Virus record (IMG/VR): IMGVR_UViG_3300044684_000224
Span: 14,820 to 78,819 of that record
DNA: 64,000 nt
Direction: 5' to 3' (one strand)
Source: a virus
Part shown: positions 3,582-63,891 of the stretch, piece after piece
Numbering within the stretch: position 1 is the stretch's first letter
How the letters are laid out: each line of letters starts with the position of its first letter
The notes under the pieces: model-generated
Database searches by the model: none
Told to the model about the DNA's origin: nothing
Seen by the model: the letters and a program-made list of their open reading frames with translations, nothing else
Position numbers and translations under genes: made by a program

Positions 3582-4238
3582 ATGTCCAACATCCAACTGT
3601 TCAGCAACGACGAGTTCGAGTTGTCCGTCGAGTACATCGACGACACGTTCCGCGCGTACGGTCCACATCTGGCACGCCAACTGGCGTTTCGGGACGCGTA
3701 CGACCTCGTCCGCAACCTGGAGTCTGACGAAAAGACGCAGGTCGAGACGCACCGGACTGGTCCGGTGCCTGTTGACCAGCAGATATGGTGGCTGACCGAG
3801 CCGGGATTCTTCCGCGTGATCTCGCAGCGCCAAGTGGCTCGCATCAAGGACAGCGAGACCCGCGACAGAGTGCGCCGCTTCCAGCGGTGGGTGTTCCACG
3901 AGGTGCTGCCGTCGATCCGGCGTCACGGTGCCTACGTCATCACCGAGCCGGCATCGCTCACCTGGGAGCAGACCGCGCAGCGCTTGTACCAGATGTACGG
4001 CCTGCCGCTGTGTGCCGCGCAGATTACCGGCACGCTCAAGTCCGCCGGGGTACTGCGCCAGAACGGGAACCCGTGCGTGAAGTACCGAGACTGGTTCTGG
4101 ATGACCGGCACCGGAACGGTGAACGTGCTCGACTTTGTGCTGCCGAAGATCGCGGCCAAGCTGACGGAGACGCGTTCGAAGATGCTGGAACGCCAGCAGT
4201 GGTACCAGCTCCGGCTACAACTCGATCCGTCACCCTGA
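3582..4238 (+). CDS. BRO-N family antirepressor-like protein
   Basis: LTEPGFFRVI and RFQRWVFHEVLPSIRRHGAY, the Bro-N signature; GGAGAAGG RBS. Confidence 0.85.
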   Translation: MSNIQLFSNDEFELSVEYIDDTFRAYGPHLARQLAFRDAYDLVRNLESDEKTQVETHRTGPVPVDQQIWWLTEPGFFRVISQRQVARIKDSETRDRVRRFQRWVFHEVLPSIRRHGAYVITEPASLTWEQTAQRLYQMYGLPLCAAQITGTLKSAGVLRQNGNPCVKYRDWFWMTGTGTVNVLDFVLPKIAAKLTETRSKMLERQQWYQLRLQLDPSP

Positions 4239-24727: not shown

Positions 24728-25317
24728 ATGACCACCGGCGACCTGATCCCCTACATGGCGACCCAGCACCTCAACCTGGACGGCCCGACCGGTGCGAACG
24801 CCGCCCGCGACGCGCTTCAGGCGCTCGGCGACCGCGACTTCGAAAAGGCCCACTCCATCGAAGACGCCTTCGTGTGGGCCGTCATCCAGGCGATCGCGGA
24901 CGGCCACCCGGACCCGGTCGGCCTGGCCAAGTCCGCACTGGTTGTCCACGAAGCCGACTTCGCTCGCTACACCGCCTGAAGGAGGCCGAAATGACCACCG
25001 AGACCACCGCCAGTGACGAGTACCTCTGCGCCTGCGGGCACTCGAAGTTTGAGCACGCCGGTCGCACCCACCGTGGCATCTGCTACCCGTGCAACGGCAA
25101 CGGCGGTTCTGCGGGTGCGCCGGGGACCTACTGCTCTCGGTACCGCAAGCCAGTCACCACCGAGCAGGGCCAGTCCGTCTCCGAGGTCCCCGGCAAGCCG
25201 GGCCGTGTCATCACCGGACGACCCCAGAACGTCGAGATCCACAACCCGACGACGGCCGATCCGTTTGCCTTGGTCCCCGGTGCATATGGATACGACTGGG
25301 AGGTGGAGGACCGTTGA
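24728..25317 (+). CDS. Two hypothetical genes (24728-24979 and 24991-25317)
   Basis: AAGGAG and GGAGG RBS. Confidence 0.6.
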
Positions 25318-26498
25318 CGCTTACAGACCTACCCGAGACTTGGCTCACCATTCCTGGATTTGATGGCCGTTACGACGCGTCCTCGCTCGGTCGCATCCGG
25401 AGCAACGCGAGGACGCGCCACCCTAATAGGATCATGAAGTCTCATATGATCGAGAAAGGGAACGGGCTCAGGTATCGTCGCGTAGCGCTTAGCCCTAAGG
25501 GTGGACCCAATGTCGCGAGGCCAGTCCACGTCTTCGTGGCTAGCGCGTTCCACGGCGAGCGTCCGACGGGGCAGCACGTCCGCCATCTCGATGGCGACTC
25601 GCTCAACAACTGCGCGTCAAATCTGGCGTGGGGTTCCGTTTCTGAGAACACACTAGATCGGGTGCGACACGGAACCCACAACGAAACTAGGAAGACCCAC
25701 TGTCCTCACGGGCACGAGTACACGCCGGATAATACCTACCGTACACGCAAGGGTCACCGTATCTGCGTAACTTGCAAACTGGCCGATAACCGCCGTCGCA
25801 AGCGTCAACGAAGTCTCCTTCGGCGCGCCCAAAGGAACAGCGCGCTCGCCGCGCCGGCCGAACCCGTCACGAAGCCCAATCAGCAAATGACCATCAACGA
25901 CAGAAAGAGGCAGCGAAACATGCGGTTCAAGAAGGCAGCGCTCGCGGCGACCGGCGTGGTGGTGCTCATCGCGGCGACGGCGTGCACGTCGTCGAGTTCG
26001 GACAACGCGCAGATGCAGTCGCAGGCGGTCACCGAGAAGTACCAGGAGGCCAGTCAGAAGCAGGTGCCCTACAGGCAGCCCACGAACTGGCTGGAGCGCA
26101 CCGAACTGAACAAGCACCTGGCCCGGCAGGACGACCCGAACGCGATCCGCTACGTGGTGCTGATGACCCAGCAGGGTCAGGTGATCGCGCAGTACGTCAT
26201 CAAGGGCATGGTGTTCGACCCGAACAGCCAGCTGACCAACGACCAGCAGATCGTGTCCGGCTGGTCGGGCGGCTCGTCGTCCACCTACTACAGCCAGGTC
26301 GTGAACGCACCGGGCGACAACGGCACGTGGGGACCGGAGGCCGGCTCGGCGGCGTTCTTCACGCAGCAGGACGTGGAGGTGCAGATCCCGCCGGGCGTGT
26401 GGTGGGTCGAGTCGGACGCGCCGCAGAACTTCACGTCCACGCCGCTGCTGACGATCGCGGCCGACGCGACGCCCTCGACACACGCGGGCGGCAAGTGA
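25314..26498 (+). CDS. NUMOD4-HNH endonuclease in frame with a downstream lipoprotein (second start ATG 25920)
   Basis: WLTIPGFDGRYDASSLGRIRS (NUMOD4), VHVFVA..VRHLDGDSLNN..NL (HNH), THCPHGH; then MRFKKAALAATGVVVLIAATAC signal/lipobox with its own RBS. Confidence 0.8.
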   Translation: MTLTDLPETWLTIPGFDGRYDASSLGRIRSNARTRHPNRIMKSHMIEKGNGLRYRRVALSPKGGPNVARPVHVFVASAFHGERPTGQHVRHLDGDSLNNCASNLAWGSVSENTLDRVRHGTHNETRKTHCPHGHEYTPDNTYRTRKGHRICVTCKLADNRRRKRQRSLLRRAQRNSALAAPAEPVTKPNQQMTINDRKRQRNMRFKKAALAATGVVVLIAATACTSSSSDNAQMQSQAVTEKYQEASQKQVPYRQPTNWLERTELNKHLARQDDPNAIRYVVLMTQQGQVIAQYVIKGMVFDPNSQLTNDQQIVSGWSGGSSSTYYSQVVNAPGDNGTWGPEAGSAAFFTQQDVEVQIPPGVWWVESDAPQNFTSTPLLTIAADATPSTHAGGK

Positions 26499-58616: not shown

Positions 58617-61600
58617 TGGGCCGCATCGAAATCCCCCGCGCCGGCGACGACTGCCGCACTGCCTACCGAATCGACTGGGGCTACACCCCCAACATCGACT
58701 TCACCGTCACCACTGACCAACTCGCCTTCTACGCCACCATCCCGCCGGAGCAGTTGCGCCAACTGGCGGATGCGTTCGCGAAGGCAGCGAACTGGGCCGG
58801 TGTCGGCGTGCCTGTCGTTGCGCGCTACCGCGGGGAGTTCGGCAGCGAGTACCACGTGCACGCGGACCGGTCCGTGTCCTACCACTCGCAGCCACCGCTC
58901 GAACTGCTTGCGCTCACCGCGGACGAGGTCGAAGCGGAAGCCGCCGCCGGTCACCTCCAACGCCTGTACGAACCCGGCGAGTGCCCGTGCCTCGCGTGGG
59001 CGCAGGCGGACATGCGGCAGAGCCACCACGGCATCGAGCATCACCAGCGCTGCGACGGAACCGGCCACCACCTCGACAAGCCACGCGAGGTGGATGTCGA
59101 CGAGGACGGTTGGTGCCGGTGCGAGCGGCACCAGCAGTGGAAACGCGACGTGCAGTCTGGTGACAGCGACCATCCGTTCGCTGGCATGTGGGCGGCGCAC
59201 CACTGCGACAACGCCTGCGTGTGTCCGACCCACGGCATCCCGCTGTACTACGAGCCCGCAGCCGGCAAGCACGGATGCATGGTCCCGAACTGCACCTACA
59301 AAACCACGCCAATGCCGTGGCCGTATCCCGCCGGACCCGAATTCCTGCCGGCGCACACGCGGCAAGTGGCCCGCGCGATGTGTCCGTGTCTGCGCTGGGC
59401 TGTCGCCGACATTCGGACCGCCGCGTACCCGAACGGCCACCACGAGTTGTGCGACGGCCACGGCAACCGAAAGGACCAACCATGACGCCCGACCTACTGA
59501 AGGCCGAACGTGTTGATTCGGGCTACGGCGTGTGCTGGCGCGGTCGGCACGCGGTCATCACGAACGGCGCCACCCACACCGTGCACGCCGAAGTCGTAGT
59601 CGGCGACCGAGACCTCGTGCTCTACGTCGAGCCGCTTGTTACCGACGAGTTGCATGAAGGTCCAGATCAAGGACGACCCGAGGCGCGGCGTGTACTGGTC
59701 CACCGACGCCGGCGTCTGCATCGCCAGCGCGACCTCGACCAATGTCGAGGTCGCCGAGTACGCGCCCGCCCGCGTCCGCGACGCCGCCCACGCCGCCGGC
59801 CGGGACTCGCCGCGAACCTCGATGCCGACCTACGCCACTACCTCGGCATGACGCTCCCGCCGGATGAATCGCTCGCACCGTAGCCGAAGGACCAGCAGTG
59901 GCCGACACGCTCACGATCAACGACCAGCTCACCGCCCGGTTCGCCACCGAATGGGACACCGGAATCGAGTACGCCCGCCTCACCGACGGCGACTTCGTCC
60001 TGATCATGCTGAAGGACGACTTCGACGTGCTCGCCACCGACCCGATCGCGCTCGTCTCGTACTTCGACGCCAAGCGCGCCGAACACGCCGCTGGCCAGCC
60101 CACCGGGACTACCCGTGCCGAGCGTGTCGGCCAGTTCCGGGCCGCACTCGTCGCAGCGACGGGAGACGAACTGTGATCACACTCCTGCTGCGACTGCTGC
60201 GCGTGCCGTGCGGCGCGTTCGGTGGCCAGTGGCCCGATCGCTGGACACGCTGGTGCATGAAGCGGTTCGGTCACAGTGACTCGTGCGCGTTTGACTTCGG
60301 CCGGCAGCCATTGGACCGTGAACGCCGACGTGCCCGGGGGTGGGACGATTGACCGACATCATTGATCTGATCGACCAGGCCATCACACCCACCTGCGCCC
60401 AGTGCGGCGCCGAACTCGGCGACAGCCTGTCCAACTACTACTGCGGACCCGACTGCCAGAAAGCCTGGAACGAGGCCCGCAGCGTGCCGCTCGTCGGCTA
60501 CCGCGAACCGTCCGACCTGGAAGCGCACTACTCGAACCAGATCGAACTGGCCAACCCGGAGACGATGCCAGACCGGCCCGACGACGGATACGACGGCTAC
60601 ACCGTCGTGAGCGAGACGCCGGCCCGCGACCCGTTCCGGTCGCTGCGCGACAGGACCCGTGGTCTACCTGCGGCCAGGAGGATTGTTGTCACGTCAAACC
60701 CCTGTAACCCTGGCGGAACGAGCCTCCCGAGCTACCTCACCGACGACCGCACCTACCGCTGGTTCGGGCCACGCCGCACGCACCTGCTCGACACCGGTGC
60801 ACCGTGGATCCGGTCACTCATCACGCCGGCGCTCGGCGACTACGTCAACTCGATCCGCCTCGAACAACGCACCGACACGCCGACGGTCGCCATGTTCATC
60901 GGCGGCTCACGCCACGGCCAAACTATCCCGGTCACCGCGCGGCCACAGCAGACGATCGAGGTCTACGTAACGCGGGCACCCACCCTGAGCGACGCGGCGC
61001 TGTTCCTCGCCGACACCATTCGGTTCGAGCGCCGGTTCTACCACCTGAGCCACCATGCCCACGGCTACTGGTACTACCTGTACGACCAGCACAACGACAC
61101 GGTCGTCCCCGCCACCGACCGGCACCCCGAACTCACCATCGAGCGCTACCATCAGGACTTTCCGCGCGATACGTCGTCAGCGCGGGTCACCGACGGCGAG
61201 TTCCACGTCGTCGGCAACTTCCCCAACCAACTCCTCGCCGACCATCCGGCGCTCCGGGCCTGGTTCGCCCACCACAGGACGATCGAGACCCAGCGTGTCA
61301 CCGACGGCTCGTGGGAGATCACCGAGCCACGGCCACCGTTCCGGAGGGAGCAGACATGACCAACGTCGAGCCACACTGGTGCACCGACCACCTACCGCAG
61401 TGGAACGCAGGCGAACCCGACGACGCTCAATGCGCGGCCTGCGGCCAGTGGCATCACTTCGGTGACGCGTTCCCGTTCGTCAACGCGTGGCGCCCGATGA
61501 CCCGGCTGGGCGTGTGGTGGCGGCGTAAGCGCGGCGTGCTCGGCGACACAACCTGGCAGCCTGGTGTCGGCCGGTACCGCATCAGTGAGCATCCCGAATG

Positions 61601-61816
61601 GGCACCCGCACCATGAGCGACCTGTACGAGGACGAGCCGCTGACCCTCCGTGGCCTGATCCAGCGCCTCGCCGACGACGACACACTGTTCGACCAGCCGG
61701 TCCATGTAGACATCCCAGACCGGGACGGCACCTACCTCGACTGCCTGATCACCGGGCTGACCGTCCGGGACGGACGCCAGGAGTTGGTCTACGAGCGGAA
61801 CCGAGACGGACGGTGA
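58616..61816 (+). CDS. Late part of the rightward run (58616-59485 Cys/His-rich, 59482-59883, 59898-60176, 60349-61359, 61356-61616, 61613-61816)
   Basis: Coupled ORFs; functions not recognised. Confidence 0.55.
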
Positions 61817-61839
61817 GCAGGGGGGCGAGCCGGTAGACA

Positions 61840-62415
61840 TCACTGGCGTTGCTCCAGCGGGCCGGACGAGTCGACGGCGAGCAGTCCTTCGAGGCGAGCA
61901 ACCTTGCGGTTCAGTTCCTCCACCGAGACGTTGTGCTCGACAAGCTTCCGACCCTGCACCTTGAGTCGCCCCTCGGTGATTGCCTGCGCCTGTTCCAGTG
62001 AGGTGATCCGTTGGTCGTGCTGCCGAAGTTGCCGGGAGTGCGCGTCCAGCCTGATCGTCTGCTGCTCGTGCTGGGCGAGTTCCAGCACGCTCAGATCCTC
62101 GACGCGCGTGCCGCGCAGCGTCTCCAGCCCTCGCCGGACCTGCCGGCCGGCGCGCTTCCGTCGATTGCGCGCCTGGTCGGCATGCTCACGTGCGGCAGCT
62201 ATGCGGTAGCCGACGCCGCGCACGTTCACCGCAGTGCGACGGTCGCGATCCTGAAGTAGCCGGATGGCGTCATACAGGGCCGCTCGACTCGCCACCAGGT
62301 CAACGCCGCTGGCCTCGTCCAGTTCCGCGAGGGTGAACACCTGGTCGACTCCACCGGTACGCAGCACGTTGTAGATCAGTTCACGCTGCGACAGTTCCGC
62401 CTTGGTCTCGAACAT
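61840..62415 (-). CDS. Winged-helix plus coiled-coil protein, coupled to the RAMP gene
   Basis: 191 aa MFETKAELSQ..; FTLAEL..helix..VNVRGVGYRI wing; heptad C-terminus; TGATG overlap at 62413-62417. Confidence 0.75.
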   Translation of the reverse strand: MFETKAELSQRELIYNVLRTGGVDQVFTLAELDEASGVDLVASRAALYDAIRLLQDRDRRTAVNVRGVGYRIAAAREHADQARNRRKRAGRQVRRGLETLRGTRVEDLSVLELAQHEQQTIRLDAHSRQLRQHDQRITSLEQAQAITEGRLKVQGRKLVEHNVSVEELNRKVARLEGLLAVDSSGPLEQRQ

Positions 62416-63023
62416 CAGTCGACCACCTTGAAGGTCGAGACCTGGAAGCGCCCGTAGCGGAGACGGAAGTCGCCGAGTCCGGCGATGGCGCCAGCGCGGT
62501 CCACGATGGTCTGGAATTTGTCGATGTCCAGCACGGTGTCGTCCACCTGCCACAGGGAGGTCAGTGCCCATTTGTGGAGCTTCGGACGGCAGCGCATGAT
62601 CTTCACTCGCTGCTGCCCGGTCGGCCGGTAGTCGACATACGGCGAGCCTTCGAGCCCAGCACCCCAGAGTTTGTCGAGGGTACGCGGCCCCTCGTAGATC
62701 AGGGGGAGTTTGCCGTCTTCGGACGCGTCGGTCAGTCCGTCGCGGATGTAGCCGCCGTCCGATGTTTTCTTCGCCGCCGCGTGGATGGACGCCCACATCA
62801 TCTGCGCCGGCAGGTATGGGCCGTAGACCTGGTCCCAATACCAGGACATCTCCCATTCCAGCCACGCAATGCGGAGCAGAACCTCCTCGGTCTTGTCCTT
62901 CCCGCGCTTGCGGGCGAGAGAGGTCTTCTCTTTGTTGCTGGGGTCGAACGGGTTTACCAGGCGTTCGGCGTTGTGGATGAGCAGTGGACGGGTGCCACTG
63001 ATGCCGATCTCGATGGTTTTCAT
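62415..63023 (-). CDS. Stand-alone RAMP/Cas7-like RNA-binding protein (VIPR-like effector)
   Basis: N-terminal strand IEIGISGTRPLLIHN, GPYLPAQMMWASI, RCRPKL..W and C-terminal Gly-loop AGAIAGLGDFRLRYGRFQV, characteristic of RAMPs; AAGGGAG RBS; no other cas genes nearby. Confidence 0.72.
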   Translation of the reverse strand: MKTIEIGISGTRPLLIHNAERLVNPFDPSNKEKTSLARKRGKDKTEEVLLRIAWLEWEMSWYWDQVYGPYLPAQMMWASIHAAAKKTSDGGYIRDGLTDASEDGKLPLIYEGPRTLDKLWGAGLEGSPYVDYRPTGQQRVKIMRCRPKLHKWALTSLWQVDDTVLDIDKFQTIVDRAGAIAGLGDFRLRYGRFQVSTFKVVD

Positions 63024-63093
63024 GCAGGACTCCCTTGTGTTCGAGCGGTCCTATTGCCAAGTGAGGCGCGCTGCCTCGTGGCGTTTACCGCTC

Positions 63094-63370
63094 CTGTGCG
63101 CGCCAAGGACTCGAACCCTGGTGTCTGCCCGTCACGCTCCGTCCCTACCTCACCTCGCCTGGCCACACCGCACCTCGCCGGACCCAGCCCAACCCAGCCC
63201 CACTGTGTGCGCCGGGGCCTCGAACCCCGGTGACTGCCAGTCGCACTCCGTTGCCAAACCTTGCCCTGCCACACCCAACGCAGCCGTACCGAACCACGCC
63301 GCACCGGACCCCACTCAGCCTCACCTCATCGCACCCAGCCATGCCACACGGTGCCAAACACAGCCCTACC
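63094..63370 (-). ncRNA. GGY-NN pentamer guide-like RNA array: two units, each a pentamer tract plus a 48-nt structured tail
   Basis: Tract A 63251-63370: 24 pentamers, 19 exact GGY and all 24 with Y at position 3. Tail A 63203-63250. Tract B 63145-63199: 11 of 11 GGY. Tail B 63094-63141. Tails are 39/48 identical. Confidence 0.85.
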
Positions 63371-63377
63371 AAAGAGA

Positions 63378-63401
63378 GCGTCCAGGACCAGCGTCCAGGA
63401 C
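63378..63401. repeat. 11-bp direct repeat GCGTCCAGGAC x2 upstream of the pentamer array
   Basis: 63378-63388 and 63391-63401. Confidence 0.75.
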
Positions 63402-63540
63402 GTACACAGTGAACCACCTGTCCAACTATTCGTCCAGCGCAACGAGAATCACCAATTACGACCAACGCGTATCAACGGAATCGGGAACGTACCAACGCAT
63501 GCCGATTTGTACGCCGCAGTGCGGCCGATGCTCCACATGC

Positions 63541-63891
63541 TCAGTCCCACAGTGCCCAGAAGTGCTCGACGAACAGCTTCAGCGCCTCGTCTATCGCTGC
63601 TCGTTCCGCCTTCTCCCGTTCGATCGCCTGCGAGTAGGTCTCACCCTCGACGTGGCGGTTGAGGTCAACCTTGAGTGGGTCGACGATGCGGGTGAGGGTG
63701 TCCCGCCATTCCTCCTCGGTCATGCTTGGGTCGTAACCCATGCCGTGGTCTCGGAGGTGTTCCACCGTCCCAGCGATCACCGAGGCCAGGTAGCAGTGGA
63801 GTTCCCACACATCCCGCTCCGACCAGCCGCGCCGTGCACGCTGGATGCGCCACTTCATCGTCCGCAGCGGCTTCGTGAATCGGGGCATCAT
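63541..63891 (-). CDS. Conserved phage hypothetical protein
   Basis: RRGWSERDVWELHCYLA..W..L..I..EALKLFVEHFWALWD. Confidence 0.7.
   Translation of the reverse strand: MMPRFTKPLRTMKWRIQRARRGWSERDVWELHCYLASVIAGTVEHLRDHGMGYDPSMTEEEWRDTLTRIVDPLKVDLNRHVEGETYSQAIEREKAERAAIDEALKLFVEHFWALWD

Follow-up and report, generated by a model that had tools for sequence, protein, structure and literature searches.

As seen in Table 1, the gene examined here lies on the minus strand of the window, that is, the whole stretch of 64,000 nucleotides of viral DNA that was analysed. On this strand the locus is read in the order promoter region, two GGYNN guide RNAs (vrRNAs), vipr and the gene here called vap1. A first-pass annotation had placed a gene at this position with a TGATG overlap to its upstream neighbor, and both were borne out by the ORF and by direct reading of the sequence. 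The ATG of vap1 occupies 62415-62413 and its TGA stop 61842-61840, and the last A of the vipr stop (TGA at 62417-62415) is common to the vap1 ATG, resulting in an overlap of 1 nt. The GC contents at codon positions 1, 2 and 3 in the vap1 frame are 0.78, 0.42 and 0.78, a pattern of the coding type. The same open frame 5' of vap1 has values of 0.84, 0.59 and 0.44, which represent a non-coding pattern. MFE-x-K is the N-terminus in relatives as well, and F2 is kept in 88% of them. The start at 62415 is considered sound because of the codon-position GC and the shared N-termini of relatives. On the same two grounds, an ORF of 406 aa (61840-63060) was rejected as a real gene and is regarded as a high-GC artefact.

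The overlap suggests that the translation of the 2 genes is coupled. The earlier proposal of stoichiometric co-expression goes further than this: an overlap does not imply equal amounts, and Vipr assembles with approximately 12 protomers on each guide (10.64898/2026.04.26.720927). The sequencing runs listed with the stretch are solely DNA runs from soil and rhizosphere, from which it may derive; no RNA sequencing run is listed with it.

Table 1. Features of the vap1 locus and of 2 unusual relatives of the protein
Feature	Position	Strand	Basis
vap1 homologue (very probable), 191 aa (P0001)	61840..62415	-	ORF, translation, codon-position GC, 436 relative clusters, profile match
TGATG overlap, vipr stop / vap1 start	62413..62417	-	sequence read directly
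Shine-Dalgarno-like AAGGTGG, 7 nt 5' of vap1 ATG	62423..62429	-	sequence
Predicted winged-helix domain, residues 1-75	62191..62415	-	AF2, Foldseek, Atlas
Predicted basic helix alpha4, residues 76-101	62113..62190	-	AF2, conservation, composition
Predicted helix alpha5, first part, residues 110-148, hairpin with alpha4	61972..62088	-	VIA-align
Leucine-zipper-like C-terminal extension, residues 149-183 (about 35 residues)	61867..61971	-	heptads, L175/L179 conservation, partner alignment
vipr (Cas7-like RAMP), 202 aa (P0002)	62415..63023	-	PDB 36pp_D match, phrog_4652, glycine-rich loop
vrRNA tract 2	63145..63199	-	11/11 pentamers GGYNN
vrRNA tract 1	63251..63370	-	19/24 pentamers GGYNN
Tandem 13-mer GGTCCTGGACGCT x2, exact copies, 25 nt	63377..63401	-	TRF
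P0035, Vap1 relative with Lsr2 fusion, metagenome contig	L015:3501-4166		Lsr2 residues 185-219, 58 bits, cut-off 26.9
P0068, Vap1 relative of 367 aa, two tandem winged-helix copies	L016:1330-2433		directly downstream of vipr

The upstream neighbor had been described as a RAMP protein, and a match to the solved Vipr of Escherichia phage SUSP1 confirmed it as Vipr. P0002 aligns over residues 1-196 with PDB entry 36pp_D, 'SUSP1 Vipr protein' (phmmer E 3.8e-14), matches phrog_4652 with an E of 2e-36, and has the conserved glycine-rich loop GLGD-x-R...GRF of Vipr. No Pfam, NCBIfam or PADLOC family was found for this upstream protein in the initial searches, and megablast of the locus against phages returned no match. 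The GGYNN tracts of the locus are found on the vipr strand and none on the other strand. The guides have tRNA-like tails, and ARAGORN detected no tRNA in the whole window. At a related locus (L012), the same program calls a guide tract and its tail 'tRNA-Ala', which shows the tRNA-likeness of the tails.

Immediately 5' of vrRNA tract 1 lies a tandem repeat of GGTCCTGGACGCT, and each copy contains the palindrome GTCC-T-GGAC. An exact 12-mer of the repeat has only 2 sites in the 64-kb window, both at this place and with zero mismatches. Judged from its sequence and position, the repeat is a candidate operator, or it may form the leader at the 5' end of the guide transcript. The closest relatives, L013 and L011, showed no counterpart in front of their arrays. 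A scan of 61600-63700 for sigma-70-like promoters, of a kind poorly suited to actinobacteria, was negative.

An AF2 model of P0001, built with an alignment of 104 rows, has a mean pLDDT of 94.9. The winged-helix elements of the model are helices at residues 10-20, 29-36 and 45-58, a strand at 26-28, and a hairpin of strands 62-65 and 69-72. VRGVGYRI corresponds to residues 65-72, and the wing RGVGYR falls within the hairpin (RGVGY at 66-70). Among 104 relatives G69 is invariant, Y70 is present in 96% and R71 in 88%. Foldseek related the winged helix to the OmpR/PhoB effector domain, MarR-like 1ku9, histone H1 and ScpB with probabilities of 0.9-0.99 and weak E values of 0.03-0.1. The Atlas search returned three viral hypothetical clusters (TM 0.63-0.87), followed by GntR and Trans_reg_C over residues 1-77. 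These predictions agree with the OmpR-like wing that had been noticed in VRGVGYRI: the N-terminus is predicted to be a winged helix with an OmpR-type wing.

Two long helices follow in the AF2 model, at residues 76-101 and 110-183. In the first of these, alpha4, 10 of the 26 residues are K or R, and E77, H78, R88, R91, Q92 and R95 are conserved. R44, R60 and R71, which flank the recognition helix and the wing, are conserved family-wide, as are R88, R91 and R95. Residues 79-150 were matched by VIA-align to helical hairpins with Z of about 8, a value that is common among helical models; this alignment suggests that the packing in this part is intramolecular. The positions a and d of the heptads in residues 149-183 are 70-83% L/I/V/M, clean heptads are found in residues 149-183 only, and L175 and L179 of this extension are conserved among the 104 relatives. 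Therefore, of the 'long coiled coil' claimed previously, only the zipper-like part at 149-183 stands, and residues 79-150 are better described as a predicted intramolecular hairpin. As indicated by an alignment with the SUSP1, Medea1 and LESphi2 partners, the extension is missing from the 146-aa SUSP1 Vap1 and from the Pseudomonas partners.

From the winged helix, the conserved basic residues and the Lsr2 fusion of one relative described below, we infer that Vap1 binds DNA, the fold itself being predicted. From the heptad pattern in the predicted zipper at 149-183 we infer oligomerisation. Database searches with P0001 found no Pfam family even at E <= 1 and likewise nothing meaningful in NCBIfam and PADLOC, and the match to PHROG was weak (phrog_5926, E 1e-5). 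A PDB sequence search with the Vap1 family profile returned generic coiled coils only, with E of at least 0.001, and no deposited Vap1 structure.

The 191-aa gene is very probably a homologue of vap1, whose product is an accessory protein of VIPR (Viral Interference Programmable Repeat), a phage system for RNA-guided gene silencing; the locus is type II-like. This identity is based on the Vipr match, the GGYNN tracts on the same strand, the profile match to SUSP1 Vap1 and the place of vipr in the related loci described below. SUSP1 reference genes (vipr, AVU07_agp039; vap1, AVU07_agp038) were fetched and translated for the comparison. A profile of 104 relatives matched SUSP1 Vap1 with an hhalign probability of 97.1% and an E of 7.4e-11 over 112 columns, which run from the winged helix through the basic helix into the helix after it. 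Pairwise BLASTP also joined the two proteins over the wing and the basic helix (E 0.002). The actinophage Vap1 profile additionally matches the Medea1, LESphi2 and wV8 partners, with E from 4e-12 to 3e-15. Judged by sequence, both proteins of the locus are homologous to the SUSP1 pair, which is consistent with placement in type II.

In SUSP1 as in the locus described here, vap1 follows vipr immediately in the same orientation and is accompanied by GGYNN vrRNAs, and the two products share a homologous winged helix, a G-x-GYR wing and a basic helix and are predicted DNA binders. However, identity in the aligned core is only about 19%. SUSP1 Vap1 has 146 aa compared to 191 aa in P0001, and the extra zipper-like helix is present in P0001 and in most relatives. 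The SUSP1 guides have pseudoknot tails, whereas tRNA-like tails are found here, in a high-GC soil phage. VIPR and its Vap1 have already been described in preprints of 2026, so the locus is a new example, from an uncultivated soil phage, and not a new kind of system. No actinobacterial examples are named in the text of the discovery preprint (10.64898/2026.04.26.720920).

The Vap1 family is large. By phmmer, 436 relative clusters (50% identity) were found at E <= 1e-3 among 1.84 billion cluster representatives, and therefore the gene is more than a chance reading frame. The median length of the relatives is 177 aa in the best 150 of the 436 clusters. A word-indexed protein search with P0001 returned the query alone, relatives surfacing only by the full phmmer search, and the phage collection yielded no tblastn match to P0001. 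A search of the Vap1 profile for fused forms of at least 388 aa found none, which is weak evidence against a Vipr-Vap1 fusion.

For the study of synteny, the ORFs in all six frames of every fetched locus were searched with HMMs built from the Vap1 and the Vipr relatives. These loci came from Mycobacterium, Gordonia, Pseudomonas and Felix-O1-like phages and from metagenomes. Enough flanking DNA was available in 18 of them (8 in phage records, 2 on IMG/VR contigs, and 8 on metagenome contigs to which five different Vap1 relatives led), and two further contigs were too short. In all 18, vap1 is immediately preceded by a co-oriented vipr. Co-occurrence with RAMP homologues had been proposed in the first-pass annotation as the check on its own reading, and the linkage was found throughout the informative loci. 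Of 16 loci, 15 have GGYNN tracts on the strand that encodes vipr, and no locus has them on the opposite strand. In 9 of 15 loci vipr and vap1 overlap or are at most 2 nt apart; guide tracts separate the genes in 4 of the 15, and there is a 37-nt gap in one and an intervening gene in one. Translational coupling is therefore common in the family, but it is not defining, given the guide tracts between the genes. In phiHSIC one gene lies between vipr and vap1, and the Vap1 match is weak (E 5.6e-5).

Homologues of Vipr were found in 131 records of phages, which range from the Felix-O1-like coliphages to phages of Mycobacterium, Gordonia and Pseudomonas. Within the phage collection, 118 Felix-O1-like records carry SUSP1-type Vap1, and Vipr is present in about an equal number. 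In 7 of the 8 vipr neighborhoods that were opened, the downstream gene encodes a protein of 146-190 aa with a G-x-GY(R/E) wing. When three close Viprs were used as queries for related loci, two viral loci and none in genomes were obtained. Each of the 4 cultured actinophages that encode Vipr encodes the partner too, the vipr/vap1 pairs being LittleE gp34/gp33, prophiBWHA-1 gp43/gp42, MakoManhole gp78/gp77 and Trine gp41/gp40.

Two relatives have an unusual architecture. P0035, which is 37% identical to P0001 over residues 2-156, is a Vap1 fused to an Lsr2 DNA-binding domain; it is encoded downstream of vipr with three guide tracts between. The fusion is a single case among the 104 members scanned. 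P0068 carries two winged-helix copies in tandem.

Several individual loci show further features. Gp40 of Gordonia phage Trine (L004:3585-4388, MH271318.1) is annotated with 267 aa, the 5' part of the gene contains GGYNN tracts at L004 3628-3687 and 3752-3796, and the Vap1 profile match begins only at about residue 100. Its annotated N-terminal part probably comes from translating guide-RNA DNA, and vap1 itself probably starts further downstream. In Escherichia phage wV8, the 58-bp direct repeats DR_4 (L008:2259-2316 and 3652-3709) flank gp95/gp94 and coincide with the ends of guide tracts; to judge from this position they are probably conserved vrRNA tails. A very large array of 16 guide tracts occupies L011:2877-6133 (IMGVR_UViG_3300036803_000075), four of the tracts lying upstream and twelve after vap1, and a true tRNA-Ile(GAT) gene at 2793-2867 stands directly before the first of them. 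Gp34-gp33 of Mycobacterium phage LittleE (L002:2986-4148) form a reverse-oriented island with five guide tracts between the tape measure and minor tail genes, a placement typical of a mobile accessory cassette.

VIPR was described only in 2026. Published work assigns vap1 to type II systems as their accessory gene, predicts its product to be a winged-helix-like DNA binder (10.64898/2026.04.26.720920) and reports that Vap1 is needed for VIPR function (10.64898/2026.04.26.720920, 10.64898/2026.10.15.759431). Co-expression of vap1 boosts the restriction of lambda only with VIPR present (10.64898/2026.04.26.720920), and deletion of vap1 from SUSP1 lowers plating on a satellite lysogen by about 10^4, as does deletion of vipr (10.64898/2026.10.15.759431). 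Both the enhancement of restriction and the requirement against the satellite are data for SUSP1 Vap1 only. Vipr and vrRNA alone, when induced, repress GFP and restrict lambda (10.64898/2026.04.26.720920), and therefore Vap1 stands outside the core machine. According to cryo-EM, 12 Vipr protomers assemble per guide and both DNA strands are threaded through the filament (10.64898/2026.04.26.720927). In types III-V of VIPR the same gene slot is occupied by nucleases or helicases, which have the target DNA as their substrate (10.64898/2026.04.26.720920).

Three known systems offer points of comparison. The effector domains of OmpR and PhoB (Trans_reg_C, PF00486) share with P0001 a recognition helix followed by a hairpin wing, R-G-x-G-Y-R/K, and structural matches extend over approximately 75 residues. 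Unlike these proteins, P0001 has no Pfam match, and its AF2 model has neither the N-terminal four-stranded sheet nor the receiver domain. The model begins with the helix at 10-20, has only the strand at 26-28 before the wing, and continues after the winged helix into the helical hairpin and zipper. The partner also differs, being an RNA-guided filament for P0001 and a sensor kinase for OmpR/PhoB. The silencers Lsr2 and H-NS are, by analogy, similar in that a small protein would combine oligomerisation and DNA-binding modules in the silencing of foreign DNA. However, neither an Lsr2 nor an H-NS domain is present in P0001, P0035 alone has an Lsr2 domain, and the likeness would concern the proposed mode of action only. 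Class 1 CRISPR systems (Cascade with Cas3; type IV with DinG) likewise combine a Cas7-type guide filament with a separately encoded operon partner. In contrast to those partners, Vap1 has no enzymatic domain, and therefore the output is expected to be repression and not cleavage; Vap1 would be recruited by Vipr.

Taken together, a vap1 homologue of VIPR that works through a DNA-binding co-repressor mechanism is the best explanation overall, and the chance that it is correct in full is about even. The mechanism itself, in which Vap1 acts as a dimeric or higher-order DNA-binding co-repressor at or beside the target bound by Vipr, is put forward tentatively, at slightly below an even chance. The winged helix and the adjacent basic helix would grip duplex DNA with little sequence preference, and the C-terminal zipper would join two or more copies of Vap1. 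The protein would then act at or beside DNA captured by the Vipr-vrRNA filament and would stabilise or extend the roadblock, so that silencing becomes effective at natural levels of expression. The co-repressor is the most likely of the roles considered because of the basic surface, the Lsr2 fusion, the effectors that occupy the slot elsewhere and the dependence of the effect on VIPR. Moreover, the basic residues are conserved across a diverse family, which fits a common ligand better than diverse operators. Particles of the P. fulva RNP co-expressed with vap1 were not reported to contain Vap1 (10.64898/2026.04.26.720927), which speaks against Vap1 being held stably by the free RNP but not against its binding to the DNA-bound form. 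A complex prediction for Vipr and Vap1 gave a score of 0.00 with controls not run, and counts neither for nor against a complex. The published data fit action at the target or on expression of the system.

An extended version of the co-repressor is distinctly unlikely. In it, Vap1 would be an Lsr2/H-NS-like spreading co-silencer nucleated by the RNA-guided Vipr filament, and from the R-loop triplex its winged-helix dimers, joined by the zipper, would spread outward by polymerising or by bridging DNA. The guide footprint of about 36 bp would thereby grow into a larger silenced domain, and the actinophage C-terminal extension and the Lsr2-domain fusion would be steps along this path.

Action on expression is the essence of an alternative in which Vap1 is an autoregulator that binds near the vrRNA/vipr promoter, perhaps at the tandem 13-mer, and switches on or tunes the guides and vipr-vap1. 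The phenotype of the SUSP1 deletion would then reflect lost expression. Such a role would account for Vap1 being essential in the phage, where its deletion resembles that of vipr, yet dispensable when foreign promoters are induced on plasmids. The family with the OmpR/PhoB-type wing motif consists of promoter-binding activators that use direct repeats, one of the 104 Vap1 relatives matches Pfam Trans_reg_C (E 2.3e-4), and the 13-mer repeat, unique in the window, stands directly 5' of tract 1. However, no matching repeat precedes the arrays of L013 and L011, the promoter scan described above is silent, and the putative DNA-contacting residues are kept over the 436 clusters despite differing promoter regions. 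Solo vrRNAs also persist in phages and satellites without vap1 (10.64898/2026.10.15.759431), and effectors, not regulators, fill the slot in other VIPR types. Autoregulation is the main rival of the co-repressor and is judged unlikely.

A loader or assembly factor, which would bind the filament end or the structured tail at the vrRNA 3' end, is slightly less likely still. Its job could be processing of the guide transcript, nucleation of Vipr, or opening of intact duplex DNA by the filament. A helper step of this kind is made conceivable by the series of intermediates, partly unwound and extending from the 3' tail, that the Vipr filament forms with ordinary duplex DNA (10.64898/2026.04.26.720927). 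The gene is co-transcribed with guides, and the guide tracts that separate vap1 from vipr in 4 of 15 loci count on the same side. Winged helices and basic helices are able to bind structured RNA. However, processed guides, complete 12-subunit filaments and strong repression are obtained from Vipr and vrRNA without Vap1 (10.64898/2026.04.26.720920, 10.64898/2026.04.26.720927). The tails vary by clade, from the SUSP1 pseudoknot to the tRNA-like form seen here, while the winged helix of Vap1 is conserved, and the Lsr2-domain fusion points to DNA and not to RNA. It could also be supposed that the gene encodes an ordinary phage regulator, lies beside vipr by coincidence and has no VIPR role, as the absence of Pfam, NCBIfam and PADLOC matches and the annotation of the Gordonia phage MakoManhole homologue only as 'DNA binding protein' might suggest. 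For practical purposes this is refuted by the synteny, which holds from Actinomycetota to Pseudomonadota phages, and by the SUSP1 deletion phenotype. Additionally, VIPR-null relatives of SUSP1 lost vipr and vap1 together (10.64898/2026.10.15.759431), and the probability left to a bystander is very small.

This locus adds a modest amount to the published picture, through the C-terminal extension, the size of the family and the fusion to an Lsr2 domain. Most members of the large family (436 clusters at 50% identity) have the zipper-like extension, unlike the SUSP1 protein, and one member is naturally fused to the DNA-binding domain of a xenogeneic silencer. The extension and the fusion are clues that Vap1 may work on DNA as an oligomer. 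The cultured actinophages LittleE, prophiBWHA-1, MakoManhole and Trine provide tractable hosts with the same pair.

Elsewhere in the window, an ORF of 469 aa on the plus strand (25089-26498) carries the homing-endonuclease motifs NUMOD4 and HNH_3. A large ORF used to place the phage had no match in Pfam or among phages. HNH genes are also found beside the related VIPR loci L017, L019 and MakoManhole.
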